DNA of 62,559 nucleotides, the filler included, from Sphacelaria rigidula (lineage: Eukaryota): the NCBI GenBank assembly GCA_964200075.2. It is 10 parts of 10 records of this genome, joined end to end, with 100 filler letters (N's around TTAATTAATTAA, not from the genome) between each part and the next. Parts side by side here need not be neighbours in the genome. Positions count along the whole stretch, not along the records: positions 12,534 to 18,699 come from CAXNAA020021800.1; 9 more parts are not named here. One strand, 5' to 3'. Below, in pieces: positions 9,201-62,559 of this stretch (position 1 is its first letter; each line of letters opens with the position of its first letter). A program made the translations under genes and the position numbers. The notes beneath the pieces are model-generated. The model was not told the DNA's origin, searched no databases, and was given only the letters and a program-made list of their open reading frames with translations.

Positions 9201-9946
9201 CTGTACTCTTCCCTTTGTGTCGGGGCGGGTAGCTCGAGGGAGCGTGGGAGGGCAGAGCACGAAGATCACGATTATTTCAAGAAGGGGTGCTACATGTCTC
9301 TCCTTTTATTGCGAACCGGTCACCCAGAGCGACACCCTCTACGAATAAAGATTCGCTGCTAATTGCTGTAATGAATAACAGCGCACGTACTGCTGTACAT
9401 GTCTATATACTTTAATGTGCGAACTCTCTCATCAGAGTCCGTGAAGACTTCAGCTGCCGTCTGTGCTGAGGTGCTTTCGACTTACTCAAACTCAGTACCA
9501 TGGAGGACTCCCGAAATCATGAATATTCCGGGGACCAAGATTGGTGGTATATATATTTCAAGTGTTCTGGGTTCTATGAGTTCACCGATGTTGACGGTTC
9601 GCGGCAGCGGTCTAGCGGCACCGTCGCGGCCGATGACGTGAGGTATGTCCATGTAGAGCAAACATATCTCTATACGCCACCGCGGTCAATAGAACCTCGC
9701 GCTAGTGTAAACCTAGGCATCCGACTGTGCCGTCGCTCTGCTGTACAGCAAGGCAGCAACTGGTCCCAATAATTGTAGGTTGGTGAGTACTCGCTCTGAC
9801 ACGCTAGAAGTCGATGATTGCGGAGGTGAGTGCAGTATAGACGCATTATAGTAATCTACTTCAAATATTGTGGGTTACGCATATGAACCGGAAGAAGAGA
9901 CTCGCCTAGGCATGCAGGTATGTTGAGGCTAGATGGCGATTTGTGC

Positions 9947-10247
9947 TCAACCCTTAGACGGCAAGGGCAGTCCATCTGGACTACGCGCATTTTATTTTCA
10001 AGTAAAGTTGATGCCGATTCAACGAAAGACCTACCCTCGTCGTCTTTTGACCGCGAGGGTAGTCCATCTGGACCACCAATACCTTTTTCAAGTGAAGCTG
10101 ATGCCGATTCAATAGATGACCTACTCTCGACGTCTAAGGGTTAACCCTTAGACAGCGTGAGTAGGTCATTTGTGGAATCGGCATCAATTGAAATTGAAAA
10201 AAATTATGCATGGTCCAGGAAGACCACGCTCGCGGTCTAAGGGTTAA
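9947..10247. mobile_element. Cluster of three ~100-bp piggyBac-type MITEs (TTAA-CCCT...AGGG-TTAA)
   Basis: Units 9947-10043, 10045-10144 and an inverted unit 10141-10247 share GTCCATCTGGA, TTCAAGT, GATGCCGATTCA and GACCTAC. The junction is AAGGGTTAACCCTT. Confidence 0.8.
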
Positions 10248-10794
10248 GCACAAATCGCTACACATGACTACCATCGCTACTGTATTCTAATCGTATCAGC
10301 ATGGAACAGATGCGCGTGACGTGTGGTTCGGGGTATATTGTGTACGCATTGTTGCCCCGACTTCCTAAACCAAAATAAGAGCCCCATGGATTCGGGGCCT
10401 TTTCATGGCATAAACCAGTTCGTTCCAAGAGAGCGATATTCAATATCCATGGTTTGGACATGACAGGAGTATGGTATATGCTGTACTCTGGCGATGGTCA
10501 CAGAAAATTCAACACACGGAGGGAATAAGGAAGAAAAACGTGTTTTGAATGAAACCTCAACCGGGCAGGTGTTATCCAAAGATTGGCGATCTCTTGAGAA
10601 TATCGTATTTTCGTATTTTCCCCTGGTGCGAAGACCCCCTAAATTTGTTTTTCCCGCCATTCCACCTTTACCGGAGGTCAGTCTATATATTACAGTGCAT
10701 TATGGCATACAAGCCGGGACACCGGAGGATTTCCCTGGGGTCCCCCACATCCTTCGATTTTTCCCTTCAATTTTCACTCAAAGAGGGTTCCAGC

Positions 10795-12533: not shown

Positions 12534-14551
12534 CGATGCTCTTGGACGCACAGAGGGGGGTGGGGCCCAGCAGTGGGATGCGACAGTGGTGATGGGCGAG
12601 CTGCCGGGGGGGGCGGTGGACACGGAAACGGCGGTAGAGGCGTCGAGTGCGAGTGGTTACGGCGATAGTGTTTCGATGGGGGCCAGCGGGTGCAATTCAG
12701 CGGCGGCATCGGTCGGGGGGGGGGGGGGGGGACGGCGGTGCCGCGGGTGGCGGCAGCTGCGACCGGCGGAGGTGTCGATTGCAGTGATCTGGCAAGGGCG
12801 CCCCCGCGGACATATCTTGAGGTGGTGACAGGCAGGGGAACAGGTGAGGCGGCGGCAGCGCCGAGGAGGGCGCCACGCACTGGTGTCGGCGCCGACGGGG
12901 GGGTCTGGACGACTCCACCTTCGTCTCTCGCGGCGTCATCAGAGAGCGGGAGCGTGAACACAGCGGCGGCAGTAGAACCATATTCAACACGTGCGGGGGG
13001 GGGCACCGTTCAATTGGTGACTTGCAACCCCATCTGTTGTGGTGGCGTGATGGCAAGGGGCCTGACCGGAGCATCCATAGCGCAGTCGGACCCGGCATAG
13101 GTGAGGGGGAGATGTCCGCAGTGCACTTCATCATTCACTCCGGGACGTTATTTCAGAAGCATTTGAAGAAATGGCTCATGACTTCCACTGATACTGATCA
13201 GTGGATACTTGTCCTGTTGGCCATGTCCTGCGGGCATATCGAGCCACAAGGCTCCAACGCGGTGCAGGTAACTGTCAAGCGCATTGTGAACGAAGGCCCC
13301 CGGTACATACTGGTGAACAGGGTGTACCGCGCCATCGTGACTCCGAGAGACGGGAGCGAAAGTGCGTGGCCTCCCGACGGACTGTATGATTCGGCTGACG
13401 CATTCTGTAAAGGTGGCGCCGTTCGTTTTCACATATCTATTGGCTGGCTGTGACTTCCTGCCGCGTGTATCTGGGATTCCCTTCCCCAAGATGTTGGAAT
13501 TCGTTCTGAAGGCACTGAGAACGCCGAATCTGTTCACGAAAGCGATAGTGGTGATCGACGAGGGTAAGGCGAGGGTAGAGGTGGACGAGGGGGTCAAGTT
13601 ACTGGCCACGATCGTTTTCTTCAGATACGAAAACGCTTTTGCCGCGGGTCCTGGACATTTCTTCACCGCGACCGGGCAGAATCTGGTGTCTTTCGTGAAC
13701 AAGATTCGTCTGTGCATCACCACAGTACATAGGCACATGCCTTCCCGGTGCTGCCCGGACTTGGACGCCTGCCAGAAGTACGTGGATAAGGCCGACGCAG
13801 TATTGGAATAATGGGGAGGGGGGGCTTTGGGATGAGCATGCCCACATTGAACTTCAACGGGCGCGGACGGGGCGTTGAACCAGAAAAAAAGATTCACCAC
13901 AAGGGTGTGGTAAAGGCCGCGAGCAGAGGAGCGGTGGAGCTTACACGGGACAACATAGTTGTATACTTGTCAAGCCACACGTATGTCGATACATTCGGGA
14001 TTGTGCGCACCCTGAGATGCGCGCGCAAGCCGGAAAGGGCGGCGCAAAGACGCTACCGGTGCCAAAATTGTACGTTAAGCTGCGGTTGCCAGGGCCGCTG
14101 CTTTTTTCCGCCACCCCCTGACCCAGCGGCCGACGCTACTGCTACAGGCGATTCCGCCCAAGGAAATGTGGATACGTCCCGCCGACGTCGTAAAGGGAGG
14201 GGCGGATCCACGGCCAACCGTGAAAGGGGCGGGTCAGCGGCGTTGCGTGGCGGGGGGCAGGGGAATGGAGCGAGGAAGGCCCCGGGGGCAGGTGTTGATA
14301 GTAGTCGTGGTGAGGATGGCGAGGGTAGCGGGAGGAAAATCGGATCCGGGACCAGATCCTAGCTGTCGCAGTTGTTGCGACGGCGGTCTAGATGATCCGC
14401 CAGTGGGCGGATGGATCGAAGCATTCAGCCGGGATCTGGCTTGGAGATTCAGACTCCGAGTGTAGCGACTCAGAGGAAGAGGATTCGGCACCGGAAGCGG
14501 GCAAAGACGACGACGACGAATTCGCGTTTCGATTGCACCTGTATCGAAAGT
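12534..14551 (+). pseudogene. AcademX-like transposon ORF, 3' part: Gly/Ala-rich linker, XPG/FEN-like nuclease, Cys-rich finger and acidic tail (frameshifted)
   Basis: ORFs 13022, 13362 and 13811 give GIGEGEMSA, STDTDQW, YLLAGCDFLP, CPDLDACQKYVDKADAVLE*W, MPTLNFNGRG, RCQNCTLSCGCQGRC and AGIWLGDSDSECSDSE. Confidence 0.75.
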
Positions 14552-15585
14552 CGTAGACATGTTTCTTGCAGATGAGTTGCGTAGGTATATAAGTAACCGT
14601 GGGAGATATCTTCAGCGGACGGAAGTTATAACCTTGCGTAGGGTTGATGGGGACGTTGTAGAGTGCCTGGTGCAGTGCGCCCTTGTGTACAGGCGTCTAC
14701 GGCGGATCGTCCGGCGACACCCTTGGGCAAATCGCCGGTTGTATCTCAAGATTATGCGTGATACTATAATAGTGGAACGAACGACTCATAAAGCAAAAAT
14801 GATGATCAAGACGTGGTGTTGGAGAAAACCTTATGGAACACTTTGCAACACGACCACCACACGCACGTGGACTCCAGTCGCGAGGCGGCGTTCATAGCGC
14901 TCTGCACAGCAGGCGAACCGCCACGAATATTCGGTTTGATAACAACTGATCTTGAAAATTGAGGACAACGGTTTTCATTGACGATGATAAGTCGGTTTAT
15001 TACAATCTTCATATATGTGGACCATTTGGTTTTAGTATGCCTGCATTCCTTCATGTACCGATAGCTATCACCAATTTCTGTATGCCATACAAGATTGAAA
15101 TCCGATAACCGAATTGCTGGGGTCCGATGTGTATATGTTCTGTGGTCATGGTGGGGGGGGGGCGGGCACGTGATAAAGATGGAACACGTAATCCATCCTC
15201 CATGTCGCAGAACATTGGTTCCAAGTGCTACACGCTGGAGGAACATCAGATGATGTTTTCCGTCCCTAATTCTTCAGTATTGCCCACCAAACCTCGGCCC
15301 CCATCACGCCGCACAGTCGATGTGACTACGTGTGCTTCGAAGCAAGCCCTGAAGCAGTTTCCGTGGTATCTCTCTTTTGTTTCCGATAGCTTACAGTATC
15401 ACTGACGACACAAGGAATCGGCAGACCGTAAGTGTTCCTTGTCTTTCATTTTTTTCATTTTTCTCCTTTTTTTTCTCTGACCACGAGCTGGAGTGTTGCA
15501 ATCAGCTACGTAATGCGCGGTCATCATATTTTTGTGTTGCTCGTGCTTGTGTTTGTGCTGGTGTATGTGTTTGTTCGTCGTTATT

Positions 15586-15586
<1 letters not shown>

Positions 15587-15623
<37 letters not shown>

Positions 15624-15651
15624 GCTTGGTGGTGGTGGTGGTGGTGGTGGT
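15587..15651. repeat. (GTT)n/(GGT)n microsatellite, followed at 15760-15830 by a probable retroposon 3' end with an (ATCA)n tail
   Basis: Trinucleotide runs are directly visible. GTGAGATAATCAATCAATCACTCAATCAA at 15801-15829. Confidence 0.8.
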
Positions 15652-17858
15652 GTTTTTTGTTGTTATCGCTGCCCCCTTTCTTTCCTTTCTGAGGTCGTTC
15701 CTCCTGTCTTTTTCTGGTCCTTTCTTTCTTCTTTGTTTTTATTATTCTGTTCTATTTTTGCTGCTCCTGACCACAGGCCGGATTGTAGCAACCAGCTAAC
15801 GTGAGATAATCAATCAATCACTCAATCAAGTGTGCGTTTACACCTTGCGCGGCGATCCCGTAAGCACGCTTCATGCGCCGCCCCAGCGACAATGACAAGC
15901 ATATGTCTGGAACATCTTTGCCACTGGCGGGCAATGTTAATTGTTGCATGTATGCTTGCGGGAGAAGATATTCCCCACGTTGTAAATCAAATGGACGCCG
16001 CGCAATTACTACCTGCTCAATGTGGATATCACATGTTACCCGATGGGTTTTCACGCCGCACCTCACATGTTATAACACCCGCCTCCGAGATGGCAATATC
16101 TCGACGCACACGGCAGCTATCGATACAAATCGAATTGCTCTGTGTAGAAAAAACGCGTACCTATCAGTCCTCCACTTCTTGGCAGCCAATATCCTTGTCA
16201 AAAAATTGGAAGTTGGGGTTAAGTGAATATCATCTAATTCAGATATTGCACTGTTTTGACACTCATTTCACGTCTGCCAGGGCTTGAGCGATGGCTGGTG
16301 TCCAGTAGTACCTGCCTGTAGAGTTTCGGATTCGTGACGTCCGTCAGCGGTGAGAAATCTTATGATGCGTAAAGGACGGATATGTTGGAAAATTACTTTC
16401 TCGCTTGTACAAAAAAGCAGTACTTTTTTTAGGGATATCCATCGCTGGTTTGTGAGCTGTACCGGGTGGAATCGACCCGGACTGGGATGAGAAGGTAGCT
16501 TCAGATACATACTACAGCCGTGTATCGCTTTAGTTGCTATATTATCTTCTGTACACTTCTTAGGCTCCGCCGCGTCTTCATTTTGGGGGTGGTGGTGGGA
16601 AACGTGACACTAACCCCCGGCGTAACACTGGGTGCTCTGGAACGGTCTCGGCGAATAGAGCAAGCCATTCCAAGGTGTCAACATCCGTTGAGCCCTCTTT
16701 TCGGGGCAAAAACGACGAAGAAGGGAAAAAAGAGCGCTTTCAACAAGTTATATTTCTCGATACATGAGAAGTAGCCTAACAAAGGAAAAAGAAAATAGAA
16801 AATTGGAAGCGCGATGCAAAGCAGAGCAACCTATGAAATTATCAGCTATGGTGAAATATAACAACCAAGTACTTCACCACGAAGAACAACCCTTCAACAA
16901 TCTCCATACCCCATCCACCCGGAATATTCCACGCCGTTCGCAGATAGTCAACCGTCAAATCACCACCGAAGATAGATGCACAGCCCAAACCGAAACACGA
17001 AAAGTGTAGGTGCGTATTGCAACTGGGAATGAACTTGTACGTGGGCACTCAAAGACAAGGGAAAACGCTTCCAGAATTGAAAACATGACAGTAAAAAAGA
17101 TGCCGTCATTACTTCATATTACGACAAAAAGCAAGGGTGAAATAAAAGTACAATGCGAGCATTAGTCAGTTTAGAACCTTTCTTGATACAGTACACATCC
17201 CCTGGCTACAAAGTACATTGAGTATTGAATACTCGGGATCGAGCCTGTGCGGGAGGGGAGGTGTCGACGGGGGTAAGTGGGTGGTATGGAATAGCACTTA
17301 ATGCAGCATCAATACGCTTTGCTGCACAGCGCATCGCCCGAGCGAAACACAGGCAGACAATGGCCTCCCGAGAGTGGTTGTGAGGTCACCATCGCTCTTC
17401 ATGCCCTTTTACGTATCTGCTCCATACGCTCCTTTTATTTTTATTCTTCGGCCTTTGGAGGGGAGGAGGGGGGGAATTTTGGGTCATGTTTCGACGAAAG
17501 TTTTGGCCCCGTTTTATTCGTTTTTGGTACTTTTCTTTACTCCAATTTATCTTCGAGTTTAACTAGGCCAACCAAGAAGCCATTTTTTGGCTCCAACAAA
17601 AAAAGGCTTAATCGGCTGAAGTCTACGGAACACAGGCCTGAACGAAGCAGAGGGGAACAACAACATCAACATCTTGAAACACGACGAGGGGGGAGGGGTA
17701 GGGATAGGGGGTCTGGCCTCGCAGAGATGGGACTCCGAAACAAAAAGGCTGCACGGCAGGAGAATTGGCTTGCTAAGTCCGTTCATCACGACGAAAATAA
17801 AAAATGTGGGTGAATTTTTGGAGCCTTTAAGTCGTTTTGCGCTCCAAGAGAGAGCTAC

Positions 17859-18144
17859 GCGGAATTTGACACCTTGGACTGCGTTGCTGCACTCTTTGAG
17901 ACAGTTCTGGCACATTTCTGCGTTTTTCCAGTGGCCGCAGCTTTTTTCTTGCCTACTCTTGTATTTTCCTTGGACACCGGCCAAGTTCACCAAAACTTCG
18001 GCGATTTTTATTGTGGACTTTGCCGGTCGCCGAGAAAAATGCAAGGTTGGGCCAGAGAAAAGCTGCGGCGACCGTAAAAATGGACAGATGTGCTAAAAAC
18101 ATCTCAACCAGTACAGCAACGCATTCCAAGATGTCAAAATCCGC
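17859..18144. repeat. Long imperfect inverted repeat (~140-bp arms), with a third direct copy of the arm at 18310-18440
   Basis: Left arm GCGGAATTTGACACCTTGGACTGCGTTGCTG matches the reverse complement of the right arm, GCGGATTTTGACATCTTGGAATGCGTTGCTG. Pairing continues to a short loop near 18000. Confidence 0.85.
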
Positions 18145-18799
18145 CCAGCCCTTTTTGAGGGAGTAACATGACGTCGAAGCTCCTAAAAGGCTCTTTCTCG
18201 GAATTTGTTCTTGTCTGATATAAGAAGCTACCTTACAGTAAAACATGAAAGTTCTGTAAAAAATGTCTTGTTTTTTTTCGGCCGTTTTACGTCCTGAAGA
18301 TATAGCTTGGTGCAGTTGGACACCTTGGGGTGACTTGCTCTACATGTTAAAGCGGTTCGAGGACATTTTCGCGTTTTCCGGCGGCCGCAGTTTTCATTTT
18401 TCCAATTAAGCCTTATTGTACAGAGGCGGCCAAGTCCAAATAAAAAAAGACAGTTTTCCCTAGATTTGGGCACAACGCCCGTACATGGGGATATATTGTT
18501 GTAGTGCAATGTGACTTTCAACCAATCAGATGCCCTTTAGTGAGGAATAGGCGGAATCTAGTGCCAATGTAATGCGACCTTCGCAGTGAACTATGTAGTG
18601 AAAAATGCGTGTGATTGGCTCGTGGACTCAAGTCACACCTAACAGCCGATTTTCGAAAATGGGGTTGAAAAAAAAAATGAGGTTCAACTCAAAAGCCGTN
18701 NNNNNNNNNNNNNNNNNNNNNNNNNNNNNNNNNNNNNNNNNNNTTAATTAATTAANNNNNNNNNNNNNNNNNNNNNNNNNNNNNNNNNNNNNNNNNNNN

Positions 18800-20214: not shown

Positions 20215-23200
20215 TCAGAATCTTCGATTGTCCCCTCGAGAATGTTGACTACAGAGGTATCGGCAATATAGCCAGCGGAGACGACTGTATCCCCAGCCGT
20301 TCAAAGGGAAGAGTTGCGGCCGCCCAGCTACGGGAAATTGTATTCTGAGTGTTCTTCTCGTTCGTTCTACATTAAATACGCGGAATACAAGAAGAGGGTG
20401 GAGCATGCGAATGCGGGGGGTGCGGTAGGGCATCAGGTGGTTTCCATGGCGCAACTCGTGCCTCCCCCCCCTCCAACGCGTCTTGGCGAAAAGATTCCAT
20501 GAGAAGCATGCCATACCGCCGCTGCAATTGGCCGCAGCGATCAAGAAGCATGCAGGACATGCGACGGGCGCGGAGATAGAGCTAACACAGACGTCCGCGG
20601 CCGTGGTCAGGGCTGTCGCAATGAACCACAAGGGGAGGAGCATGCGTAAGAGGGTGGAGCCCACAATGGGTATCTTGGAGACGTATTTTTCGGGAAATCC
20701 CAACGTCGAGATGGTTTATCGTTGCTCCGATGACAAATTTCGCCCAGGGCCCGCTGCGGTGATCACGAAAGCGATGGTCGAGGGTCTGGCACCGGCGGAA
20801 TTCAAGCAGGCCGTGCTTGTGCAGTTACAGCGCAAAACAAACTGGAAGTCAGACCCGTATTTAGTTATGGATACCGTGGTGACTGAGGCTCAGGCATGGC
20901 GGAGGGTTGAAGTATTCGGAAAAGCATCCACTTCGTCGTCGCAGTCTTCGAGCTCGCGTAACCGCGGATCAAAACCCGCAGGCAGTGCCGCCGCCAATAT
21001 TACTTGTTATCAGTGTAGCCAGGTAGGCCACTACGCACGGAAGTGCCCAACGCCTTCTGAGGGGGAGTCCGGGTAGATGAGTGCCGCGCGCCCTCGCAAT
21101 CACAAAGGAGGGGAAGGTAACCGGGGTGGTGGCGGAGGCGAATCCTCCAGCGGTGGAGGTGTACAATCGAGTTCCTAGCAGTAGCAGTAGCAGCAGCGGC
21201 AAGGGCAGCGGCGTCAGCAGGGGTTCGGTTCTGGGTCCAGTTTAGCCGCAGGGGCTGCTACTCCGGAACGGGCGGTGCAGGTGGGACCGACCTCTCTAGT
21301 GTCGGGCTCGGTGCCGGCGCCACCGGCAGCAGAGCAAGGCGAGACGCCTGCGGCGCCGCCGGCCGGAATTCAGCTGAAACTTGGCTCCGTAGCTGCGCCG
21401 GCCGGAGTACCGCTGCAATTTGGGTCTGCGGGCGGGGCTTCGTACCCGTCGGCGGTGCCGGTGACTCCAGCGGGGGCGTCTATGCCTGCGCCGCGTGCGC
21501 AGCCGTGGCGCCAAGTGGGGATCACGAACAATCAGTCGGCAGAGCAGGTACCGGTCGAGGATCAAGATGAGTACATTCCTGCAGAGTTATATCTCCCCGA
21601 TCAACGGGCGCGGGAAGCTATATCGGTCAACGCTGAGTTGCACTCCGGCGCCCACTTCACGAGCGTGTCGATGCTGATTGTGGAGATGCTGGAGCGTCTA
21701 CTTCCCGGTGAGTAAATCCGAGTTCCGTTCTCGCTCGGGGCGCGGCAGACGATCACCGCATCGAAGCGACGTATAAATGTGACGCAGCGTACGATTCCCC
21801 TACAATTGGCGTTCAGGACTATCTGGGGGCCAGCCAAGTTACCCCCGGTATCGTTTGCGATCATGCCGGGGACGGATGGTGTCCTTCTGTTGGGCTTACC
21901 GACGCTCCGGGGACTCGGAATCGATCCGTATGATCGGCTGTTAGAGGCCCTAAAAACGCAAATGCCGTCGCCCGGCTCGAGTGTCGAGACGCCTGCTTTT
22001 TTGGCCAGCCGTCGCGTGAGCTTGTCGGTTGATGCTCTCCAGGAAGCAGGAGGGCAGGTGTCCGAAGAGCGCAATGAGCCGGTGGAACGCTTGGTGGAGA
22101 GTGGCCCCGACATATTTATGGAGCCGGCGGAGGAAGATTCCGCGCGAAAGGCTGCGCATGAGGAAAGCGTGACGGATCCGGTGGCAAATTGCCTCAATGT
22201 CTCAAAAGCGGAGCGCTTGCGTGGCATATTGAATTGCCACGTTAACGCGTTTCGTCGTGCGCTGAGGGATGATGCCCCTGCGCGCGTGGAACCCATGAGG
22301 GTTACACTGAAGCGCAGGGGCGGCCGCGGTGAAGGCAAAACCGAGGAGGTATGATCCGGTAAAGTCCAGTTGGTTAGCTTCTTGCATGGGAGCTCTTGTA
22401 GCGTTTGGGTTGGTGTTCAGGAATCTACGGGCGGCGTGGTCCAGTCCAGCGATGGCGGTGCCGAAGAAGGACCCTTTCCGTCTTATCAGCGATTACGGAG
22501 CTATCCATGATCAGGTGGAGAAGTCGCCGGGTGTCATGCCCGATCAGGAATCCGACATGAATGTCCTGTTGAGTGCACGATGTTTCGGTAAGTTGGACCT
22601 CCTACAGGGGTACTGGCAGATGCCGTTGGCCGAAGAGGCGCAAGAGATATTCACAATCACGACTCCGTTTGGCATGTTTACCCCGCAACGAGTACCGCAA
22701 GGCGTGTTGAATGCTACTTCCTATTTTGAAGGTGTCATGCTAGACCTTTTAGATGGCTTGAAATGCAAGATTTGGGTGGATGACGTCTTTTTCTTCGCGG
22801 ATACGGAAGACGAACTGTTGGATACGCTTGATGCAATCTTGGCTTGCTCAGAGAGTGTTGGTCTGTTTGCAGCTGCCCAAAAATGTATTTTTTTTATAGT
22901 GAACTAGTGTGTTGTGGGAAAGCATACTCACACGGCCGCGTCTCGCATGACCCGGTCCGCTTGCAAGGTTTGTCTGACATGCGGCGTCCAGAAACAGCCG
23001 CAGAACTAATGCAATTCCTGCTCGCAATGAACTGGTTGCGTACCTCGCTGCCACGTATGGCCGAAGTAGTGGCGCCCTTGCGCCTTTTCCTAGGAGAACT
23101 CATGGTGGGGGCTGCAATGCGCACGAAGCGGGTGGCAAACAATCGTGTTATTCCACCCGCCTCGTGGACGGTGGGCAGGCTACATGCATGGGCGGTAGCG

Positions 23201-24965
23201 AAGGATCTGGTGGCTCATGCCGTGACGCTGTTCCCTCCCCGCCCCCGTTGTCAGGTGCTGATGTTTCCGGATGCACTCGACTGTCATTGGGGTAGTTTTG
23301 TAACGCAGGTGCCTGATGCAGAAAGGCAACAACGGTTGCCGGTTGAAGACATGACGCATGAACCGCTGGCTTTTCTGAGAGGTAATTTCAAGGCTTCACA
23401 GATGCGTTGGGCAACCATTGACAAGGAAGGTTTTGCTCTCGTGAGCACTTTTCGTCGTCTCGAGCATCTATTGTGGAGTGACGTACACATTTTTACGGAT
23501 CACCGAAATCTAGCGTACATTTTCAACCCGGAGGTATGCGTGACGTCTGTGTCGAAGGCGTTGGCACAGCGATTGGAGGGGTGGAAAGGTGTATTAGGCC
23601 AGTATCGGTACACGATTTGACATATTTCGGGTGAACGTAACGCGTAGGTTGACTTGCTGTCGCGCTGGGTAAATATTCCGACTTTGCCGGCGCGCGCTGT
23701 GGCCATGTATGGTCCGTGCGAACCTGATGACTCAATGGCGTCCAAATCTGTTGCCCGCCAAGCGCAAGGAAAAGACGTTGGAGCCGAAGTGCGGATGTGA
23801 AACATTTCGAGTCGGACGTTGGTACTGCTATTTTGGACAATGAAGATCTGTTTCGTGTGCATGTGCGTGGCCGAAACGTTTTGTGGATTCCGAGTTCTGA
23901 CAAGCAGTTGCAGGTACGTCTGATGATTTGTGCGCACATGCGCGACGCCAGGCATCGTGGTGTGGCTGCGATACTCGTGCGCTTGCAAGAGTTTTAAGTC
24001 TGGCAGGGGATAGAAACTAATGTGCGCGACTTTGTCCGCCAGTGTCTTCGCTGTGCTGGCACGAGGGCAGGCGATGTTGTTCCCCGCCCGCTCGGTGAAA
24101 CGATCCATGGGACCACGCCGAATAAAGCCGTTCATTTTGACTTCTTGCACGTGGGCGAGAGGGGTTCGCTAGGTCCCCAAGGTTTGTCGGACGATACTAG
24201 GTTCCGATACATTTTGGCAATCATGGATGATTTGAGCAACTTTGTGGCCCTGGAACCAGTAGCAGTGTGTACTGCTGAATCGACTGCTGCGTCTTTGCTG
24301 AATTGATGCAAACCTTTGGGGGTACGCCGTGTGTGGGTGAGTGATACCGCCACGCATAGAAAGAATGCGATCTTGGCCCGATTGCGAGAGGCTTTGCGCG
24401 TTGATCGCCAGTCTGTGGTAGCGTATCGTCCGTGGTCTAACGGTACGTGCGAACGCATGGTAAAGGAAGTAGTTCGTGCTCTTCGCTCGATTCTTCTCGA
24501 GCAGCGTCAAGAGGTGACCAAGTGGGTGGATGTGTTGCCCGCGGTGCAATGGGCGCTAAATACGGCATATCGCCGTCGGTTCGGTTGTACGCCATATCAC
24601 GTGATGTTTGGCCGTGCCCCTCGGACGTCTTTCTCGGTGCTGGTGTCCTCGTCGGCGGGGGAATGGAAGTGTGATGTTCTGGACAACGTCCAAATTAAGA
24701 GTGCATTGAAAGGAGTCTTGGACTTGCAAGAACGTTTCCCCGTTCAAGTGCAGGAGCGTGTTGCAGCTGAACATGCGTGTAGGAGTGAGGGATCTTCGTC
24801 AGGGCTGAAATTGCCGAATTGCGAGGTAGGCGATTACGTTTTGTATGCACGCGTGCCTCACCCGGGAGTTACGTCTAAATTATTGGCGACGTGGGCTGGT
24901 CCGTGGAGAGTGGTTGGTGCTCATCACCCGCATGTCTTTGAGATCTCCAAAACATTATTTCGGGT
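20215..24965 (+). mobile_element. Decayed Ty3/gypsy LTR retrotransposon 1 (gag-CCHC, protease, RT, RNase H, integrase), truncated at the contig end
   Basis: Zinc knuckle CYQCSQVGHYARKC. Protease AELHSGA (catalytic D mutated) and LLLGLPTL. RT KLDLLQGYWQ, PQG and WVDD. RNase H FPDA..., WATIDKEG and FTDHRNL. Integrase HFDFL, VSD, WSNGTCER and WAGPWRV. Several stops and frameshifts. Confidence 0.95.
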
Positions 24966-25243: not shown

Positions 25244-28200
25244 TCATGAGTCAACTGCATCCCAAGCGGTGTCCGTGTTCCGTAGAACGGCTGTTTCGAG
25301 TTCGCCTTGGTCGTGTCGTTGGAGGCACCAAGATCCCCTCCGAGCGGTCGGCTCCTCCGTGTAGTAAGCATCATCCAAGCGAATCTTGAGGGGGCTCGGG
25401 TCATCGAGGAAACGGATAAAGTAGGAGTGGTCAGACGCAGGATCGACCAAATGGATTTTACCCAACCACCACAGTGAATCCAAGGCCGTATACCAAAAAT
25501 ACGCCCCTTTCGGTAAACGTTTTCCGTGAAAACACTGCATGTATTGTGAACGCGAAAGAAGTCTATAGGCTGTCACAACAAAACGCGCTGAGTGTTCACG
25601 TGCCAGTTCCCGAGCAGCAGCTCCCTTGCGCATCGACCGATATCGCTTATTCAACAGGCGGTGTTGGACGGTACCTCCTACCCAGTACAGCAATATTTCC
25701 CGACGAAAATGACGCAAATCAACTTCACGCTCCCATGCAACACGCATGACACCCTCCCAATGTGTTTGATACATTACCGCTATCTTACCTCGACGACCGC
25801 GAAGCAGTTGATGGCCCGAAATCCTATTTACCTCAACGCGTTCTAGGGGTGCGTCCGCATCCTCGACCGTCATATGATACGGCGGAGTTTTGATCGCATA
25901 CTTGATCAACACATACTGGCTAAGCCCTACCGGCAGTTGTTTGGACATGTCAGAGGAGTCATGAGGGGGGATTCACGGTTTGCATCGGAGCATCGAGACG
26001 CGATTCTTCGGTTTCAAACCAGGTTCATCTGTGGGAAAATCCAAATACAGAAGTTTCGCTCCCACTGGACTCTTGTCGGGTGCGGTAGCGCTTGGACCAA
26101 CAGCTAAAATTTCCCAAGGACCAGTCCGATTCAAGGATAGGTTCGCCTTCAACACTTTGTCCAAAGATGATGATTCCGAGCTAGCCCCTTGATTGATGGT
26201 CTTCACATCGTTACACACCCATGCCCATTGGCCTACCTTCCACATCATCCAACATCGAGTTCGCCCTGGCCATCTTGGCCAAATTGATTTCGTTCTGTTC
26301 TCGTACCACTTCACATGCAAGACGAAGACGATTGCTAACCGACAAATGATATTCTACAATATAACGATCTAGACACTGATGTCCGCCTATATTTTTGCGT
26401 TCGAATACCGTTAAAGGTAACCTAGGCATGCGTCCAATATGAATTTCATTCGGCGACAATCGCGTAGCGGCATTGACTGAATTGTTGTAGTTCATTTGGA
26501 CAAGGGGCAGGTGCAGGTCCCAGTCCATCTGTCTCTCATTTGCTACAGCAGCAAGCATCTGTGTCACTGTATAGTTCACTCGTTCCGTTCCACCATTGGT
26601 GGAAGGGTGATATGAACTAGTAAAAATACGATGGGCACCCAAAAGGCCACTGACGGCGGCTGAAAGTTTGCCTGAAAAATGCGGGCTATTGTCAGACAGG
26701 AAGCGTTTGGGCACACCCCACTGTGGGATGTACATGCATACAAGAACGTTGGTGGTACCTTCCGCGTTATAGCTACTGACGGGAACAGCGTGCATCACCG
26801 CATGTCGACTAAATCTATCCGTAAACAACAAAATAAACTTATTCCCACTATCCGTCAGGGGCAAAGGACCAAAATAGTCCCACGAAACTACTTCATCAGG
26901 CCCGTTTGGGAGTGGCATGGAAACAATCGGCCAACGAACTGTTTGACGGGATTTTTTTCGCGGCTGACACAAAAGACAGCGCCTCACCCACCAACGACAG
27001 CACTGATCCATACAAATCCACTACTATAAAAAGTTCCAACATCTGGGAGGTCCTAGTGGCGCCTAAATGAGTCGATGTCTGTGAATGGCATTCGTGTAGA
27101 ACTCATGGGCACAGGAGCATCGGGACATAGATGCGGATGGGTTCATCACCTACCGAGCGGGCATGTCAACTTGTAGGCTTCCCCCTGGGGAGGGCTGCTG
27201 TGGGCCGGCCAACTAAGAGAACTATACCATCATCATGCGTATGTAGCATACCTTTCCTTGAAAGTTCAGTAACTTCATCCTGTGTGGGCGCTTTGAGAAT
27301 CCCGACTGGCAAAAGGAATTCGGTTTCTGAGAATGGACATGGGCAACCTTGAGATAGACAATGGATAGCTGATTTACAAGCAGATTCTGCTTGTTGTTCT
27401 CGGGCCCAATCGGCGTGGGAGAAGGGAGTCAAACGTCCCTTGAATACACCATCTGTTGAAGCGTCGGCTTCGTGTTGGGTCGGTTCGGGGCGGGGTTGGC
27501 ACCAAGCGGTGATTTCGGAATCAAGGGTGAGCCTACCAGTTGGTGTACTCTCAGACGGAACGTTAACGTCTACTCCTACGTCGATTAGAGTGGAGGGTGT
27601 TGTGGTGGTGTTTGCAATATCATCACCAAGGGAGAGGGGTACAGCCGTGGTTTCGGCTATGGTTGACAGGGGCACGGTCGGGGTCGATTTTCTGGGGACC
27701 TTGCGTCGTGGAGGTTGAGGAGGCGCAAGGAACCTATCGGGGACCGGGGTGGTGGCAGGAAGGGGAAGGTCAGGATCAGATACGGCTAATTTGGTGACCG
27801 TTTCGGCGGTTCGCCGTCCACGAGTCCTACTCGAAAACAAATCTCGAACTTGAACTGGTAAGACGGAGTCAGCAAAGGACGGCTCTACACCTGCTGCGAA
27901 AACCATGCGCTGGCCAGTTGCACGAAAATAATCATAGCCAACAGTATTCGTAGACAGTCCATTCTAAACTGAGTACAATTATTGAGGTCGCAAGCTGTCT
28001 AGAACTGATGCGTGGGCTGTGGTCGTCAGCCCATCCATGCCTAAAGCCGGCGTTTCTCTCAGTAAAAGTGGTGTGTAGAGACCTCTATGTTCATTCCTAC
28101 TTATGAAATATACAATGTCTTCGGTGAGATCTGTGATACGTCCCATGGGGGATTCATCGATAGGTTGAGCTGGTGTGGGCAAGCGTGACAGAAAGTCGGC

Positions 28201-43583: not shown

Positions 43584-44303
43584 AGGCATGGGAGAGCTCA
43601 TGAACCGTCTTGCCTGCGTAGCGATGCATCAAGCGGTGCGAGGTTCGCACTGTGGGCTGAGGTCAGTGTCTGGTAATCGATAGATGAAGAACAGTGTTTC
43701 CGTGAGATTGAGAGTAGATGATACGAGTGAGAGTGGCTTTGATCATTCGCTTCAAGTGAGTCANNNNNNNNNNNNNNNNNNNNNNNNNNNNNNNNNNNNN
43801 NNNNNNNTTAATTAATTAANNNNNNNNNNNNNNNNNNNNNNNNNNNNNNNNNNNNNNNNNNNNTTTCTTCATGGGCTATCGGCCGAAACGAACGCACCCG
43901 GCCCAAACATCCCCCCTCCTCCCCCGCTCCCGGAAAAGAGGGGGGGGGGGGATGGAAAAATGGCGAAAAACGCAAAGAATGTGCAAAAACGTTTTTTTGT
44001 TTCCGCTTCATCACTTATAGACAATACCGTCGACTCGTCTGAAAGCATGTCATCATGTTGTCAGCTACGTTTAAAACAAAGACAGGCAACATTCGTGAAA
44101 ATTTGGCCGAAAACGGTACAAATTGGTCGAAAGTGGCCTACATCTGGTCAAATTTGACCCACATTTTCCCCATAATACCAAACCCGAGTTTTTTTCCTCA
44201 CTTTTTCATGAGAATATCCGTGACTGCATCGCTGCAACGAATCCAACTACGGGCTTGGCCAGCCTGGACGCAGATTTGGAGTTTGCAGGTCCATTCGCTT
44301 AGA

Positions 44304-44518
44304 GTTGGACCCTTAAATTTGGCATGGACGATCAATATGGCATAATGAAAATACAATACCCGTGGACCCAAAGATTTGTTTTTTTCATGATTTCACGGCA
44401 TTTTACTCAAACCTAATTTTTTGCCTTCACCTCATGAAAAAAAACTCTTTGGGGAAACGGGTATTTTTGAATTCTATTATGCCCTATTGATTATCCATAC
44501 CAAATTTTCGGGTCCAAC
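44304..44518. repeat. Imperfect inverted repeat (~95-bp arms) inside a probable DNA transposon end. A related sequence lies at 37690-37830
   Basis: GTTGGACCCTTAAATTTGGCATGGACGATCAATATGGCATAAT versus the reverse complement GTTGGACCCGAAAATTTGGTATGGATAATCAATAGGGCATAAT. Confidence 0.8.
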
Positions 44519-45882
44519 CCTAAGTATTCAATTGCGAATGCCCCGTTTAAAAAACGGGTCGGTAGAATTTCGGAGCAGTATTTTGCAGGCAACTTACCGG
44601 CCCACGTTTGGTGTTTGTATACCGTGTTGGACTTGTGTGTGGGACCTCGCTAGGGCATCATGAACAAAAAAGTGGGTCAGGTTGGTATCATTTCATTTTC
44701 ACTGGTTTAGGGCGTTTTAGTGTGGTAACGACCATTTTTTACGAGAACGCCCGAACCTCTCCAAAGAAAAACATTGAAGGCTCATCTTTTTTTTTCCCCA
44801 GTACACCTCTGTGGTTCTGCATGCTAAGTTTCAAATCACAGTTGCAAAAATTGAACCAAAAAGATTAGATCAGGCTCAAGAGCAATGTTCATTTCTCCTC
44901 AAAACTCCCTCAAAAACACGAAAAGAAAAAGGAAAATATGAGAACAGCAGGCTGATTTTCATTTTATTATGCGCTAGCGGTTCCCCGTACAAAATTTTAC
45001 AGCACAACTCTCAAGAACTGAGACGCGATATACATATCCAGATTTAGTTCATCTGGTGCCTCTGCTTGTAATATATTGATTTTAGAATAGGACCTTATTT
45101 GCGCCGTATCTCGAGAAAGATAACGGCTGAATTGACGGGGGGTGTTATCGACCGTTTTTTGTTCAAAGTCATATTCTTTTCTGCTCTTGCACAGTGAAGA
45201 GACAACAATAATATTAATATATGGGTTTGTACAATTGCTCACGAGAGCGGTCGAGATTGGTCAACACCCCCTTCTCCCCCCAAATGCGAGGTCAACGGTC
45301 ATACGGCTACGGCATGCGACATCATAGTACACTCCCCACCCATTAGAAGTAGGAACGGTGCTCCGTCTCGAACGGGATGCGTGGACAACAATCAAACGAC
45401 TGAGGCATGCAACTCTCAGTACCCCCCCTCTCGCACACTTTGCCTGGTTCACCGCATGTGTACATCCCCTGTACCCCCGAGGGTTCTCGATATTCCCTGA
45501 GTTGGGGTTAGGCTGGGGTCAGAACTGCATCCAAAATGTGTCAACCGTGGTGATTTCACGAACTCGGGTAAAGCCCGCTACGAGGCAGGCCAGGTGGTAC
45601 GAAAAGTGAAAGCAAAAAGTCCTACGGTGGAACAGCAGCCTCGTTCTTTCAGCACACTTGAAACTGATTTCGTTTGCTGACGAAATAGCGAAGGGGCAGC
45701 AGGAGTCACAAGTGGTCACACATGATTGGTTGCAGGTCACCTCTTTTACCACCCACCCTCTGGAGAAGCAAGACACGGCAAAGTCAACGAACAGACTCGA
45801 TCAAGCATGGACTCACCAACCACCGGAGTTGGCCTTCCTCCTGTATGACCCCGGCTGATGCCCCCACATACATCGAAAGGTG

Positions 45883-56502: not shown

Positions 56503-57680
56503 CAATGTTACGCCCAGTAAACAATTCTTTTTTTTATAGTTTTTTAGACGCCTCCTTATAAAATGCTGGATGATGGAAAGTATCCCGATTTCGCGTGGAG
56601 GGTCTGCGCCTGTTTTTCACACAGCAGCGGACCGAACAGCATCGCTCTGGCGGAAAGCGGGGACGCGAGGGCGATCGAGGTGTGTTGAAATACAGACAGG
56701 CAGCCCCTCTTGCAAGTTTTAACGGTAGCAGTAACGGAAGCAACGAGTAATCGCAGGATCCGCGTGGCCGAGGGTGAACACCACCCCCCCCCCGTGAAAC
56801 CTGCCCTCCGGTGTTTAGGGAGAGCACCGTGCTCGCGCTACACCTTTGGCAGAGATATGGAGAGTTGTTTCCCCATCTAAAACAAATAGGCTTTCCATTG
56901 CAAAATGTATATTGAAATCCATCCATGCTAATAAATAAACGACTTGGCTGAAGTTTGAAAAAATCACGTTTTGCTCCGTACCCGTGCACGTCTGCTCTGG
57001 AGTGCCAGATATGGTGAAAACAGAACTCCTAACTTCAGTACAGCACAGTACAGTATTGCACCTGGTACAGTGCAGTAGCAGTACAGCACAGCACAGCACA
57101 GCAGAACATGGTGCTGTGTATTACACTACCACCAAGGGCATGGTGCAGTCCGCCAAAGATAAGGGTAGTTGCTGAAGTGTATCCACGTAAGGGCGGTCGG
57201 GTCGAATCCTGCAAGAATCAAATCCTGCGCACTGTGTGCGTGGATAATGTGTATGTCTTTGGGTTGCGTCGTCCATCACCCACATCGCTGATAGTGCTCC
57301 TGTTGGCTCCTGGAGCGTATGTTCGGAACCCCCGTCCGGATTCTAACGGCCGTACACGTTGAGCAACACCCACGGAGTCGACGTAGACATACAAACCTAC
57401 TTGATTAGTTGAACGGTGCTACAGTACCACGATCGAACGCTGTAGCATCAGATGTAAGTATCATATGTCAAAACCACAGCTCCGCTGGCGTAGGCCGGTA
57501 TTCCACGAGTGTTCTTGACTTCGTACTCTCGGTGCCTTCTCCGGGTCAACCCTTGCCAGCGCTGCCGAAATGATCAGGGTGGGCGTGGATGTTCTGATAT
57601 ATTTCCACAACTATGGGAAAGATATTTCTTCGAATATGGGAAAGAAGAAGTGATCGCGCCGAGAATCTACCTCGCACTTC

Positions 57681-57770
57681 TTTTGTTCGTCTGAACGAAT
57701 TCCATCACTGAGCCACTCAGTCAGCGCTGACTGAGTGGCTCCATGGTGGAGTTCGTTCCGACGAACAAAA
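57681..57770. repeat. 90-bp loopless palindrome with a 32-bp perfect core
   Basis: Arms match at 40/45 positions. Core GAGCCACTCAGTCAGCGCTGACTGAGTGGCTC (57710-57741). Confidence 0.92.
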
Positions 57771-58014
57771 CACACGATGGAAGGCACGCTATGTCAAACG
57801 CACTGATCTCAACCCTCCACCCATTCACCCCCCGGTCCATTCTCTCCCTTTTGACGGTAGACGTGGAGGATCCCCAAAACTCACTCACGGGGTGCAACGT
57901 CTGGATGCCTGTTCGAACGTCGGCGGGGGCAGTCCGAATGTTGCATACGACACCAGTGTCGATCCCGAGGTAACAGCGCCACGAGTCCCAGGTCGCTGCA
58001 TGGTTCCAAGGTTG

Positions 58015-59110
58015 TGTTCTGTAGGATACGGTTCTCTGTATACCGGGGGTATTTTCCCGGGTATTTACCATCCCCGACAGTTCTGTGACTTCTGTAAGGC
58101 GTTCATACCGGCACCCGGCAGTTTTGTAATCTCTCCAAGACTTTCATACCCTTACCCAATAGTTTTGTGAGTTATGTAAGCCTCGCGTACCGTCTCTGGG
58201 GGGTACGGGTACGCTTTTGATCAGATACCCGATTGCGGGTACGGTTTTCTGGGCAACCTGCATACCCTGCCCAACAGTTTCTGTGAGTTCTGTAAGCTTC
58301 CCATACCCTTACCCGACAGTTCTGTGAGTTCTGTACATAATGTTTACCCGCACCCGGAGCGGAGGTATGCTCTTGAAGACGAACCCCATTGTCGGTACGT
58401 TTTTTCTGTAAGTCTCACATACCATACCCGACAAGTTCTGCAATTTCTGTGAGACTTATATTCAGTACAGGTGCCCGACAGTTCTGTGAGCTCTGTAATC
58501 CTCCCATACCCCTACCCGGGGTTAGGGTATACCGTTGTAGATATACCCGATTGTAGGTACAGCACAGGTATCTACGTTGGAGAGGTATGAATATAGGCTC
58601 AATCCAAACACAACCTCATGACCTGAACATGTACCTCCCATCGAGCAACTCACCCTACTCCTTCATTCAACACTGCACACTACCAAAAAATCAATGTAGG
58701 AAAGTTCTTTAGTTTATAATTTGACGGGATACGAGGTACTGCTGAGTGGAAACACGAAACATGAGCAGCACTGCAGACCGTCTGAATGGATCACCCCCAG
58801 ACTCGAGTGAGGCGGCTCACCTGCGCCACCAGGGGAGCAAGTAGCAAGACGCACGCCATCGATGTTGATGGTGGTTGTGTTGTGGTCATCGATTCCCAAG
58901 CCGTTATGCTCTTGAAGACGAGCCCCATTGTCGGCGCGGTTTTTCTGTAAGTCTCCCGGACTGTACCCGACAAGTTCTGCAATGTCTGTAAGATTTTTCA
59001 ACCGGTACCCGGCAGTTTCTACATTTCTGTGAGACTTTCATACCGGTACCCTATATTTCTTCGAGTTTTGTAAGGAGTCTCGTACCCTACAGAACATACC
59101 CGCACCCTAT
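58015..59110. repeat. Degenerate repeat element built from TACCCG and TTCTGTGAGTTCTGTAAG modules, with an internal ~90-bp duplication
   Basis: Repeated TACCC(G/A)ACAGTTCTGTGAGTTCTGTA units. TATGCTCTTGAAGACGA.CCCCATTGTCGG occurs at about 58366 and 58905. Confidence 0.75.
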
Positions 59111-59399
59111 AGGACACAACCTTGCATGATTCTGCAAAGCGCAATTGCTTAATGTAGCAGCATCTGACTCTTGGCTCATGTTTGTGATCATGGTTGTGAT
59201 TTTGTTTGGAATCAATGGCGCCTACAGTTGTGCTTTTCAGAGCTTGGTACGAGTATTTGATTCCGACGCTCCCAATTTTAAACCGCCGAAACAGCTGACA
59301 TATTGTATCCATATATCGATTTATCTCATGTCCTCCAGACCGGTGGTGAAGCAACTGTATCACTCGGGCCTCCATTCCTCTCAACTCGTACCACATCCG

Positions 59400-61299
59400 T
59401 TGTTGGGAGTGGATCTCGACGGACAGACTCCGAGTGAGTCAGCCAGATGGCGCGGGGGAGGAGCGGCGACGCTGCGGACGGCGGCAACTGCGGAACGTGG
59501 AGGTTTCGACGGCAAAGGTTTCGCAGGGCCGACATAGCGGACATATCTTGCGGTGGTGACAGACGGACGGCGGAGCGGGGCTACGTCGGTGCCGACGACG
59601 GTGAGAAGGGTGGGTGTTGGCACCCGTGCGGCGGTTCGGAAAACTCCACCATTGTATATTGCGGTACTGACAGGCAGCGGGGAAATAGCGGCGGCAGCGG
59701 ACCAAGGTCTGCGTGGTGCGGCGCTTCCCCACCCTTCCAGTCTTTGCTGTGGTGGCGTAATAGTAGTGGGCCTGATCAGAGTATCCACAGCGCAGCTGGA
59801 CCCGGGATAGGTGAGGGTGAGATGTCCACAGTCCACTGCATCATCCACCCCGGGCGGCTGTTCAAGAAGCACTAGAAGAAGTGACTGGTGACTTCGATCG
59901 ATACTGATCAGTGGATTATTGTGTTGCTAGATATTTCCTCCGGGTATATCACGCCGCAGGGCTCCGACGCAGTGCAAGTCACTGTTGAATGATTGTGAGC
60001 GGTGGCCCCCGGTACATTCTCGAGAACAGGGTGTACAGCTCCACCGAGAATCTGAGGGATGGGAGTGAGAGCGCTTGGCCGCCCGCCAGACAGCATACGT
60101 GATTGACGTCATCTATGAAGGTAGCATTATATGTGTTGACCTACCTTTTGGCTGGATGCGACTTCTCACCATATGTGTCTAAGATTCCTTTCCTCAGGCT
60201 GTGGGATTTCGTGCTGAAGGCCCTGCGTACGCCGAATCTGTTTACAGCATCGATATTCACGGAAGAGGACGGCATCCTGAGAGTGGACATCGATGAGGGC
60301 GTGAAGCTGCCGGCCGCCATGTTTTTTTTCCAGGGAAGAAAACGCTTCTGCGCAAATCGCCACGGAGCCGGGGCTTCTCTTCGCCACGGGGGGGTGGGAC
60401 TTGGGGTCGTATGTCAACAAGACCCGCCTGTGTATCACCACAGTACATGAGCATATGCCTTCCCGGTGCTGCCCAGACTTGGATGCCTGTCGGAAGCACG
60501 TGGGTAGGTCTGACGCGATTTTCGAACACCGGGGAGGGAGATTTCAGAAGAAGATGCCCACGGTGGACTTCAACGGCCGCGGTTGTGTTGTTGAACCCCA
60601 GAAGACTCACCACAAGCGAGGCATAAAACTGAAGAGTAGAGAGGCAGAGGCGCTCACGCGGGACAACATCGTTTCTTATTTATCAAGCCACACGTATGAC
60701 GATGGGTCCGGGAACGTGCGGACCCTGACGTGCTCATGTAACCCGGCAAAGGCGCCACAAAGAGACCACCGCTGCAAAACAATTAGGTGTCTGGGGAACT
60801 GCACGCTGAGCTGCGGTTGCCAGGGTCGCTGCTTGCTATCCCCGCCGTCCTCTGGGGCAACCGAGGCGACTTCCAGTGGTGATGCTGACAGTAGAAATGG
60901 CGGTGCACGTGAACGATCTATTTCTGCCAGGGGCGGATCCGCGGCGAACCGTGGGAGGCGCGGATCCACAGCGAAGCGGGGAGGGGCGGATCCACGGCGG
61001 ACCGTGGAAGGGTCAAGGCGAGTGGAGCGACCAGCGCGTCGAGGGCAGCAGTCAGCGTGAGGCACAGCGATGAGCCGCGCCGGTTTGGCGGTGGGGGTAT
61101 GGTGGGAGAGGGATGGGGTCTAGGAATATCCCCGAATAGTCGTTCTTGTCGCGACGGTGGACATGAAGACTACAACAGTGTCGGGTCAAGAAGTGCAGCC
61201 GGCATCTGGATTGGATATTCCGATTTGGAGTGCAGCGGGTCGGAGACAGATGGCCCGGCAACGGAGGCAGAGAATGAGTATGATGATTTCATGTTTTGA
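59400..61299 (+). pseudogene. Second diverged copy of the AcademX-like XPG + Cys8 ORF (frameshifted)
   Basis: GIGEGEMST, SIDTDQW, YLLAGCDFSP, CPDLDACRKHVGRSD, CSCNPAKAPQRDHRCKTIRCLGNCTLSCGCQGRC (8 Cys) and AGIWIGYSDLECS. Colinear with 12700-14551. Confidence 0.75.
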
Positions 61300-62559
61300 T
61301 TGCGCCTGATGGAGAAGTTGTAAATATTATTTTGGCTTGTAAAGTGGATTATTGCATTTGCGTTATTGAAGATTGTCTTCTCCAGGAGGTGGTCACAGAG
61401 CTCGCCTCGTGTACATAGCAATGTTGTTCTTTGCATGGTGCAGTGTGCCCTTCGGAGCACAAGTGTGTTGAGGTTGGTGCGCTGACGCCCTTGGGCGAAT
61501 CTCCGGTCGTGCGTGAGTGCAGGTATTTATGAACACCGGACGACTTCAGATCAAAGATGACTAGGTCCACTTCTGAACCAAACCACGATCTCCAAGTTTG
61601 TCTTTTGTTAATCCTACATGCGTCTATCATTGCACAGTCATCACCGCTAGTCTGTGGCTGGATTGAACGGTGGTTTGACATCGAGCGAACCGCCGGCAAT
61701 CGTTGCTGTGACGAGTTGTGATGAACACTGAGGGGAGGGAAGTCCGAACGCGTTCTCCAATGCTTCCTCTTCAACAAGCTGAACCACTCTGCAGCGCAGC
61801 GGATGATCGATGTGACCACCTTGCCTCCAATTCGTACCACAGTTTCCCTCCGGTAGTACCGCCCCCTTTTGATGCGGAGAAGTGACGGTATCGCAAACGG
61901 TGGAAGCTATCGGCGCAGTACAGGTGGCGACATTACTTCAGAAGCCCTAATCTGAGGCGAGGACCGTTTATTTATCAGCGCCATTCTCTTGCTTTCCGCA
62001 CGCGTGCAATCAATAATGAATCTCCTAAAGGCCCTCCCGGATTCGTAAAAAATGATGGAGCTCTTGAAAACAAACGTCTTTTTTTGCCTTGAAAGGTTAG
62101 GTAATATATGAAATATTGTACAATAGTTGTTGTACTGTACACAAGAGTATGTACTGACTACTGTACCGTATTCAGCGGCGAGGGAGGTAAATAGGGGTGG
62201 GTCATCCTTGCGTCGAGCGGCTCATGGGTCTGCTACCAGTTTCTTATTTCCCAAGGTTGCAGTGTCGATGGCAGATTTCTTATTCGCTGGGCCTCTTGAA
62301 TCTCTCGATTTCTCATCCTTATTTTCGTCTTGATCTGAGCAAAATTTGTTGTTATCGACTTCTTAAAACCTGGAGAATCTGAGCCTCGATTTCTTAACTG
62401 GTGACTTCTGGCGCAGCTCGGAACTCCCGTGCTTGCATTATTTCCGCCAGTGTCGCTCACAGTTCACGCTTGTTGCAATCTGAAACCAGTTATCATGTGC
62501 TGTATGACCGTATTCTTCCCGACAGCTTGCAGGGTGGTCTGGGGGGGGGGGGGGGGGGG

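Follow-up and report, generated by a model that had tools for sequence, protein, structure and literature searches.

Polyproteins that combine a DUF6589 transposase with a nuclease and a TCR domain are, we take it, the products of AcademX DNA transposons, DUF6589 being presumably linked to Academ in general. The AcademX lineage goes back to Kojima 2020 (Mob DNA 11:15). A Cys8 finger label, YR..YR ends, long terminal inverted repeats (TIRs) and a red-algal record are associated with the group. AcademX generates target-site duplications (TSDs) of 3-4 bp and encodes a nuclease, whereas AcademH encodes a helicase and generates TSDs of 9-10 bp, a difference in length apparently tied to helicase versus nuclease (PMC10045372). 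Passages of other papers place Academ in fungi and bivalves (PMC5751038, PMC10799480, PMC10294476), and those of a further set contain nothing on algal Academ (PMC3627910, PMC5753468, PMC11071193, bioRxiv 2025.02.11.637652). A curated Ectocarpus sp. 7 library comprises ten DNA superfamilies, Academ not among them, and 51 families labelled DNA/Unknown (PMC12477816); the Academ column is blank for Ectocarpus in the PMC4438587 supplement. The literature searched, with Repbase/Dfam and most subscription papers lying outside it, contained no report of Academ from brown algae or from any other stramenopile, and an earlier record may exist. Unannotated Academ-type proteins occur among the gene sets of Ectocarpus sp. 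CCAP 1310/34, Pylaiella and Nemacystus. Academ, mainly animal and fungal so far, has several families in the brown seaweed genome analyzed here.

The window (the whole stretch of 62,559 nucleotides from Sphacelaria rigidula that was analyzed) consists of ten ~6.2 kb contigs joined by N-linker-N spacers, and contains two copies of the element on separate contigs of genome G000, copy 1 on C21800 and copy 2 on C21807. With a probability of roughly 0.9, both are dead copies of a brown-algal cut-and-paste DNA transposon of the AcademX type. Their features are as follows.

12534..16630, plus strand: copy 1 of subfamily A, covering the transposon 3′ part from contig start to right terminus (91% identity to copy L023)
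12534..13099, plus strand: Gly/Ala-rich spacer, located between the nuclease N and I halves in full-length copies (ORFs of L023, L036 and L038)
13100..13990, plus strand: C-terminal (I) half of a predicted FEN/XRN-fold 5′ nuclease, frameshifted, stop at 13809-13811 (GEGE, STDTD, GCDFLP, CPDLDAC..YW, NGRG)
Motifs of copy 1: GEGE 13100; STDTD 13184; LLAGCDFLP 13437; CPDLDAC 13752; MPTLNFNGRG 13838; Cys finger 14009-14101; acidic tail 14446-14523
14009..14101, plus strand: damaged CXC (tesmin/TCR-like) finger, six of nine Cys remaining (nine in L024 and L027; TCR matches in animal relatives)
14102..14530, plus strand: polyprotein tail, Gly/Arg-rich, then acidic
16619..16630, minus strand: right TIR of copy 1, the minus strand reading CAGTGTTACGCC
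56503..62559, plus strand: copy 2, a member of non-autonomous subfamily C, extending from its left terminus to the end of the contig (~90% to L039, L040, L041, L045 and L050)
56503..56518, plus strand: left TIR CAATGTTACGCCCAGT of copy 2, inserted within an (AAC)n tract
57509..57770, no strand: ~260-bp insertion, fixed in subfamily C but not present in C4632, a copy that carries the DDE
58007..59124, no strand: nested MITE-like insertion fixed in subfamily C, with 25-bp inverted ends and 41-bp subrepeats
59433..59435, plus strand: 7-kb deletion junction (bases 1778 to 8804 of C4632), identical in 6/6 subfamily C non-autonomous copies examined
59435..61295, plus strand: I half of the copy 2 nuclease, followed by the remnant of the finger (eight Cys) and the acidic tail
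Motifs of copy 2: GEGE 59810; SIDTD 59894; LLAGCDFSP 60145; CPDLDAC 60470; MPTVDFNGRG 60554; Cys finger 60722-60832; acidic tail 61216-61290

The first-pass annotation had described two diverged, frameshifted copies in independent contigs with a fixed series of motifs, and this description was confirmed: every motif was found in both copies in the order given, distributed over three frames. The two copies share 68-69% DNA identity (68% in an alignment of 1566 columns, E=0), and the 1.1-kb core yielded a dN of 0.22, a dS of 0.95 and a dN/dS of ~0.23. The predominance of synonymous substitutions indicates genuine, once selected coding sequence. Within the same core, copy 1 carries one stop and two frameshifts, and copy 2 carries three stops and two frameshifts. 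The proposed 8-Cys finger holds for copy 2, but copy 1 retains six cysteines, following an 18-bp deletion and one C>R change, and intact sister copies have nine. Likewise, the motif regions first delimited are real, but the elements are larger, spanning 12534-16630 and 56503 to the contig end. Six window ORFs had no match in Pfam, and a profile of 25 animal-like polyproteins had no match in five window ORF fragments; the class assignment of copies 1 and 2 therefore rests on sister copies. One of these, L023 (G000:C7294), is 91% identical to copy 1 across all 4097 bases, with homology ending at the TIR, and GGTG adjoins the right TIR of copy 1 as the expected target duplication. A candidate second ORF at 14466-14897 was rejected, since L021, L023, L024, L025 and L026 all have the same interruptions of its frame, which marks it as 3′ non-coding sequence. 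A 46-bp sequence in the second contig (window 11434-11479) resembles the copy 1 3′ region at 15083-15128 (80%).

Searching the 244-Mb genome with a 126-aa piece of copy 1 gave at least 150 matches (150 of the 150 scored, from 236 candidates), in agreement with the high copy number suggested earlier, and these fall in identity bands near 85-90%, 60-73% and 30-40%. Since frameshifted copies yield two rows each, these are matches and not copy counts; the same reading applies to the 77 matches obtained for the DDE region among 86 candidates. In a set of 80 genomic stretches, homology stops sharply at CAGTGTT(A/T)CGCC on both sides of the element. TIRs had been expected to bound related copies, and short inverted ends were indeed found; the prediction of long TIRs beginning with TAG failed, as the repeats are 12-16 bp (CAGTGTTACGCC) and start with CAG, giving CA..TG at the outer ends. 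Scans for the terminus patterns yielded 39 and 55 matches for right ends and 15 for left ends, against none in each reversed control, and no inner motif common to left and right ends rose above shuffles in 36 left-right pairs. Among 12 two-ended copies, the TSD was an exact 4 bp in six, 5 bp in one, 4 bp with one mismatch in two and absent in three, one of the latter having a degenerate end. None of 132 cross-pairs matched at 4 bp. The anticipated 3-4 bp duplication was found at 4 bp. For the distant families D and E, two ends plus a TSD were not found.

An Academ-type DDE domain had been predicted upstream of the nuclease, and many sister copies contain such a region, with DN.D, GDEET, GDWH and DERQE motifs. 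The first-Asp (D1) motif is spelled WDNCD, IDNCD or FDNND, and GDEET, GDWH and DERQE align with the animal polyproteins; the order in own-genome contigs is colinear (D1, DDE, nuclease N, nuclease C). The domain is missing from the window, as originally stated, because the 5′ part of copy 1 lies off the contig and because copy 2 belongs to a subfamily in which it is deleted, which is more than an effect of the window edge. In a Pfam scan of 11 element ORFs, DUF6589 was matched in L038 at E 1.6e-7, passing the cut-off, and in L028 at 5e-4, below it; eight of the 11 had no match at all, and no helicase family appeared among them. In L038, the DDE lies in the frame of the nuclease, from which one stop separates it, and in L028, L035, L036 and L093, a putative intron at the same codon (donor GGAG/GTGAG, acceptor CTCAG/G) would join the two and restore the frame. 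A second intron is predicted from the sequence after the first Asp region of the transposase. None of the joints displayed in four public runs, whose contigs are of uncertain kind, was a splice joint of family contigs. In three public runs, a family contig continues into CCCTAA telomere-like repeats at L028:5555.

Copy C4632 links the left TIR to the whole gene in a contig that stops before the right TIR, and the 6.7-kb copy C1503 has both TIRs, DDE remnants and the nuclease but is internally deleted, with flanks GAGT/AAGT differing by one base. None of the 19 DDE-bearing contigs examined contained an intact autonomous copy in which an open gene is flanked by both ends; summing C4632 and the 3′ part of L041 suggests an autonomous form of ~12.5 kb. 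The DDE of subfamilies A-C contains a long low-complexity insertion between GDWH and the catalytic Glu (L028:3460-4270, L035:4415-4900), absent in families D and E; the insertion includes a single EsV-1-7-like Cys motif, with a sub-threshold Pfam E of 0.2. A 761-aa open frame with 13 EsV-1-7 cysteine-rich stretches lies just outside one copy (L029:7138-9420). An EsV-1-7 repeat gene next to a copy and the relatives described below both point to a brown alga as host.

The contig of copy 2 ends ~0.7 kb before the right TIR. Its 7-kb deletion took out the N-terminal region, the DDE and the nuclease N half of the subfamily, and all six copies examined share, at ~90% identity, the deletion junction, the two nested insertions and the same 1-bp nuclease frameshift. 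Both ends are present in three of the six, where the 4-bp TSD is exact in two and has a mismatch in the third. The common deletion and frameshift indicate that subfamily C multiplied after its death as a gene; having lost the DDE and half of the nuclease before multiplying, it was mobilized in trans, with the nuclease remnant as a passenger. Breakpoints differ in other defective derivatives, some of which lack the nuclease altogether. The idea that non-autonomous copies selectively keep the nuclease was considered and rejected, given the frameshift in 6/6 subfamily C copies, the absence of the nuclease from L044 and L061, and a sample that was itself drawn with a nuclease query. The MITE-like insertion at 58007-59124 has 8-bp flanks (CATGGTTC/CATGATTC, one base different), a length that we take to be hAT-like, and an insertion of this type is duplicated in L041. 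The ~260-bp insertion contains a near-perfect 90-bp palindrome (window 57681-57770). One subfamily C element sits 272 bp within the right end of a subfamily A element (L041:8397-8668, G000:C747), an insertion into a relative, and a LINE-like reverse transcriptase is inserted in another subfamily C copy (L039:5406-7091). Elsewhere in the window, LTR-retrotransposon remnants with zinc knuckle, RT-RNase H, integrase and RT domains were observed at 20429-23620 and 26211-29382, and large imperfect palindromes, probably other MITE families, at 9936-10258, 17815-18188 and 44298-44524.

Relatives outside the genome were found with both domains. Of three longer proteins retrieved with the DDE query, two come from Ectocarpus sp. 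CCAP 1310/34 and the third from Nemacystus decipiens; the latter (P0001, predicted 1802 aa) combines DDE and nuclease in one protein. The nuclease query gave 213 representatives, of which 150 were listed; among nine of these and P0001, Pylaiella littoralis and Ectocarpus were identified. A profile search for wider taxonomic range returned at least one protein. One distant match led to P0157, a 1599-aa DUF6589+nuclease+TCR protein with 24 relatives; two of these 25 polyproteins bear animal names, Acanthaster planci LOC110990766 (P0180) and Owenia fusiformis (P0182). P0180 shows a weak OTU protease match ahead of the DDE (E 6e-4, below cut-off). The 25-row animal-like profile matched own-genome ORFs in the DDE at E 5e-30 to 5e-37 and in the nuclease at 1e-13, 9e-11, 3e-7 and 0.014 (E-values stated for 1000 sequences). 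Conversely, the algal nuclease profile, with two outlying rows left out, matched 21 of the 25 polyproteins at E 1e-4 or better, and hhalign gave 99.8% over 269 columns between the two nucleases, with one animal-like row among the 49 in the algal alignment (A3). Identity between algal and animal-like polyproteins is 18-22%. In a quick tree of 38 nuclease halves, which is unrooted, has two long branches and excludes five C-terminally incomplete animal-like rows and any fungal or red-algal rows, five own-genome rows and three named brown algae belong to a single group of 17 rows (SH-aLRT 99) that sits on a long branch and within which our families interleave with other species. By sequence, then, the nuclease joins the animal DUF6589+nuclease+TCR polyproteins and not the solved XRN/FEN proteins. 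Taken with the upstream DDE, the TIRs and the 4-bp TSDs, this grouping supports the stramenopile lineage of AcademX type proposed at first sight.

Between subfamilies, the nuclease is under purifying selection (pN/pS 0.35-0.41); values within subfamilies are 0.47-0.72, inflated in subfamily A by two partly deleted copies. The predicted structure of the L038 nuclease has a pTM of 0.68 and a disordered spacer (residues 167-371, pLDDT <50). In Foldseek, the model gave no match at E 0.001 or better; XRN1/XRN2 occupied the top ranks in PDB (best E 1.5e-3), and giant-virus XRN proteins were at the top in BFVD (E 3e-5, 9-12% identity). VIA-align ranked Exo1 at Z 15.8 (273 residues, rmsd 3.9), FEN1 at 14.7, Xrn1 at 14.4 (364 residues, rmsd 4.9) and XPG at 12.6, with XRN proteins aligning over ~360 residues at Z 13.4-14.4. 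The animal-like nuclease model (pLDDT 85) behaved similarly, with XRN first in Foldseek (1e-7), Exo1 at Z 17.0 in VIA-align and XRN at Z 14.6 with more residues aligned. The 14 PDB rows matched by a sequence profile at E values of 10 or less included no XRN or FEN, and no XRN-family Pfam match occurred among element ORFs, in which the nuclease carries GEGE/DFLP motifs. Compared with FEN-like PIN 5′ nucleases (Exo1, FEN1, XRN1/2, XPG), the algal domain has the same predicted fold and seven acidic positions (VD, YD, GEGE, DTD, GCDF) at 9-16% identity. In the algal and the animal lineages alike, the models thus identify the domain not specifically as XPG but as a FEN-like 5′ nuclease that bears an XRN-like extension. 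Of the PIN/XPG-I fold and CXC-like finger initially expected, the finger was recovered, with nine cysteines in intact copies that align with the animal TCR/CXC finger, and the fold was recovered in a FEN/XRN form. GEGE and DFLP had been suggested to look more Xrn1-like; the XRN resemblance extends to the animal protein, and because that relative gives the same fold ranking, only the GEGE spelling is alga-specific, and an alga-specific capture of XRN was discarded.

As an alternative to the AcademX reading, the elements might be an Academ-related lineage in their own right, distinct from both AcademX and AcademH and worthy of a separate name. Short TIRs of 12-16 bp, introns, a spacer-split nuclease, GEGE/GEAE in place of EEAD, the well-supported 17-row algal group with its long branch and the 18-22% identity to the animal-like polyprotein all point that way, but domain order, colinear polyprotein homology and fold ranking are as in the animal polyproteins, the TSD length is within the AcademX range, and the tree is quick, unrooted and without fungal or red-algal rows; we consider a separate lineage rather doubtful. 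A more specific proposal appears unlikely: that the Academ accessory nuclease, labelled XPG, is XRN-like, with a helical C-terminal extension that aligns to XRN1/2 and, in the algal lineage, the GEGE..DTD..DFLP spelling of XRN, and that, fused to a transposase, it could act as a processive 5′-3′ exonuclease whose substrates at the element ends might be RNA or RNA-DNA hybrids. If true, the brown-algal families would represent a third lineage of Academ, in which one could test how an accessory nuclease determines TSD length.

Two further readings were considered. The CAGTGTT end presumably resembles hAT ends, and several two-ended copies (L044, L061, L062) move without all or most of the nuclease-finger cassette, as cargo of a hAT-like element with no part in transposition would allow. 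However, hAT target duplications are 8 bp and those found here 4 bp, the transposase is of the DUF6589 type, the same transposase-nuclease fusion occurs in animals, and purifying selection acted between subfamilies; the fusion in particular largely refutes a cargo role, which we judge highly improbable. The structural ranking of XRN1/XRN2 in PDB and of giant-virus XRN in BFVD could suggest degenerate host paralogues of XRN/FEN/Asteroid or nucleases encoded by a giant virus that had inserted into the genome. TIRs, TSDs, the DDE fusion and more than 100 dispersed matches contradict this, as does the profile search without XRN or FEN in PDB, and a single query, able to detect close relatives, revealed no relative in viral contigs. 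Element anatomy refutes host or viral genes, to which we assign next to no weight.

For the AcademX-type transposon, the anatomy of the element, its ends, its 4-bp duplications and the spread of its defective subfamilies are demonstrated. One intron-containing gene would be translated into a polyprotein composed of an N-terminal region, the DDE, a spacer-split FEN/XRN-fold 5′ nuclease, a 9-Cys CXC finger and an acidic tail. As general DDE chemistry suggests, the DDE domain would cut at the CAGTGTT ends and insert them at staggered target nicks. CXC domains bind DNA, and the finger may do so here. The 5′ nuclease may trim 5′ flaps or overhangs during excision or insertion, leaving the short 4-bp duplication; we lean slightly toward such a trimming role in shortening the target duplication. 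Since defective subfamilies still make 4-bp duplications, the nuclease is dispensable in cis.

Collectively, our findings extend a little-studied transposon superfamily to stramenopiles, and the ends, TSD and domain map allow these repeats to be masked and classified; they widen the range of the superfamily and refine an architecture already known, the mechanism itself not being new. The element resembles AcademX in its single polyprotein of DDE, nuclease and Cys finger, with no helicase seen, its 4-bp TSD and its 5′-CA..TG-3′ ends. It differs in its brown-algal host, at least two putative introns, GEGE/GEAE instead of EEAD, one 5-bp TSD, a nuclease split by a 180-300 aa spacer and TIRs of merely 12-16 bp, as against the reportedly long TIRs of Academ. 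With the animal DUF6589+nuclease+TCR polyproteins (P0157, P0180, P0182), it shares colinear homology over D1, DDE, nuclease and CXC and the same structural neighbours, whereas identity is ~20%, the animal nuclease is compact and spacerless, and the animal-like proteins lie on the opposite side of the tree. AcademH of fungi and animals has a DUF6589-type transposase in common with it (clusters in Mollusca and Basidiomycota), but our element combines a nuclease with a 4-bp TSD, whereas AcademH combines a helicase with TSDs of 9-10 bp (PMC10045372).
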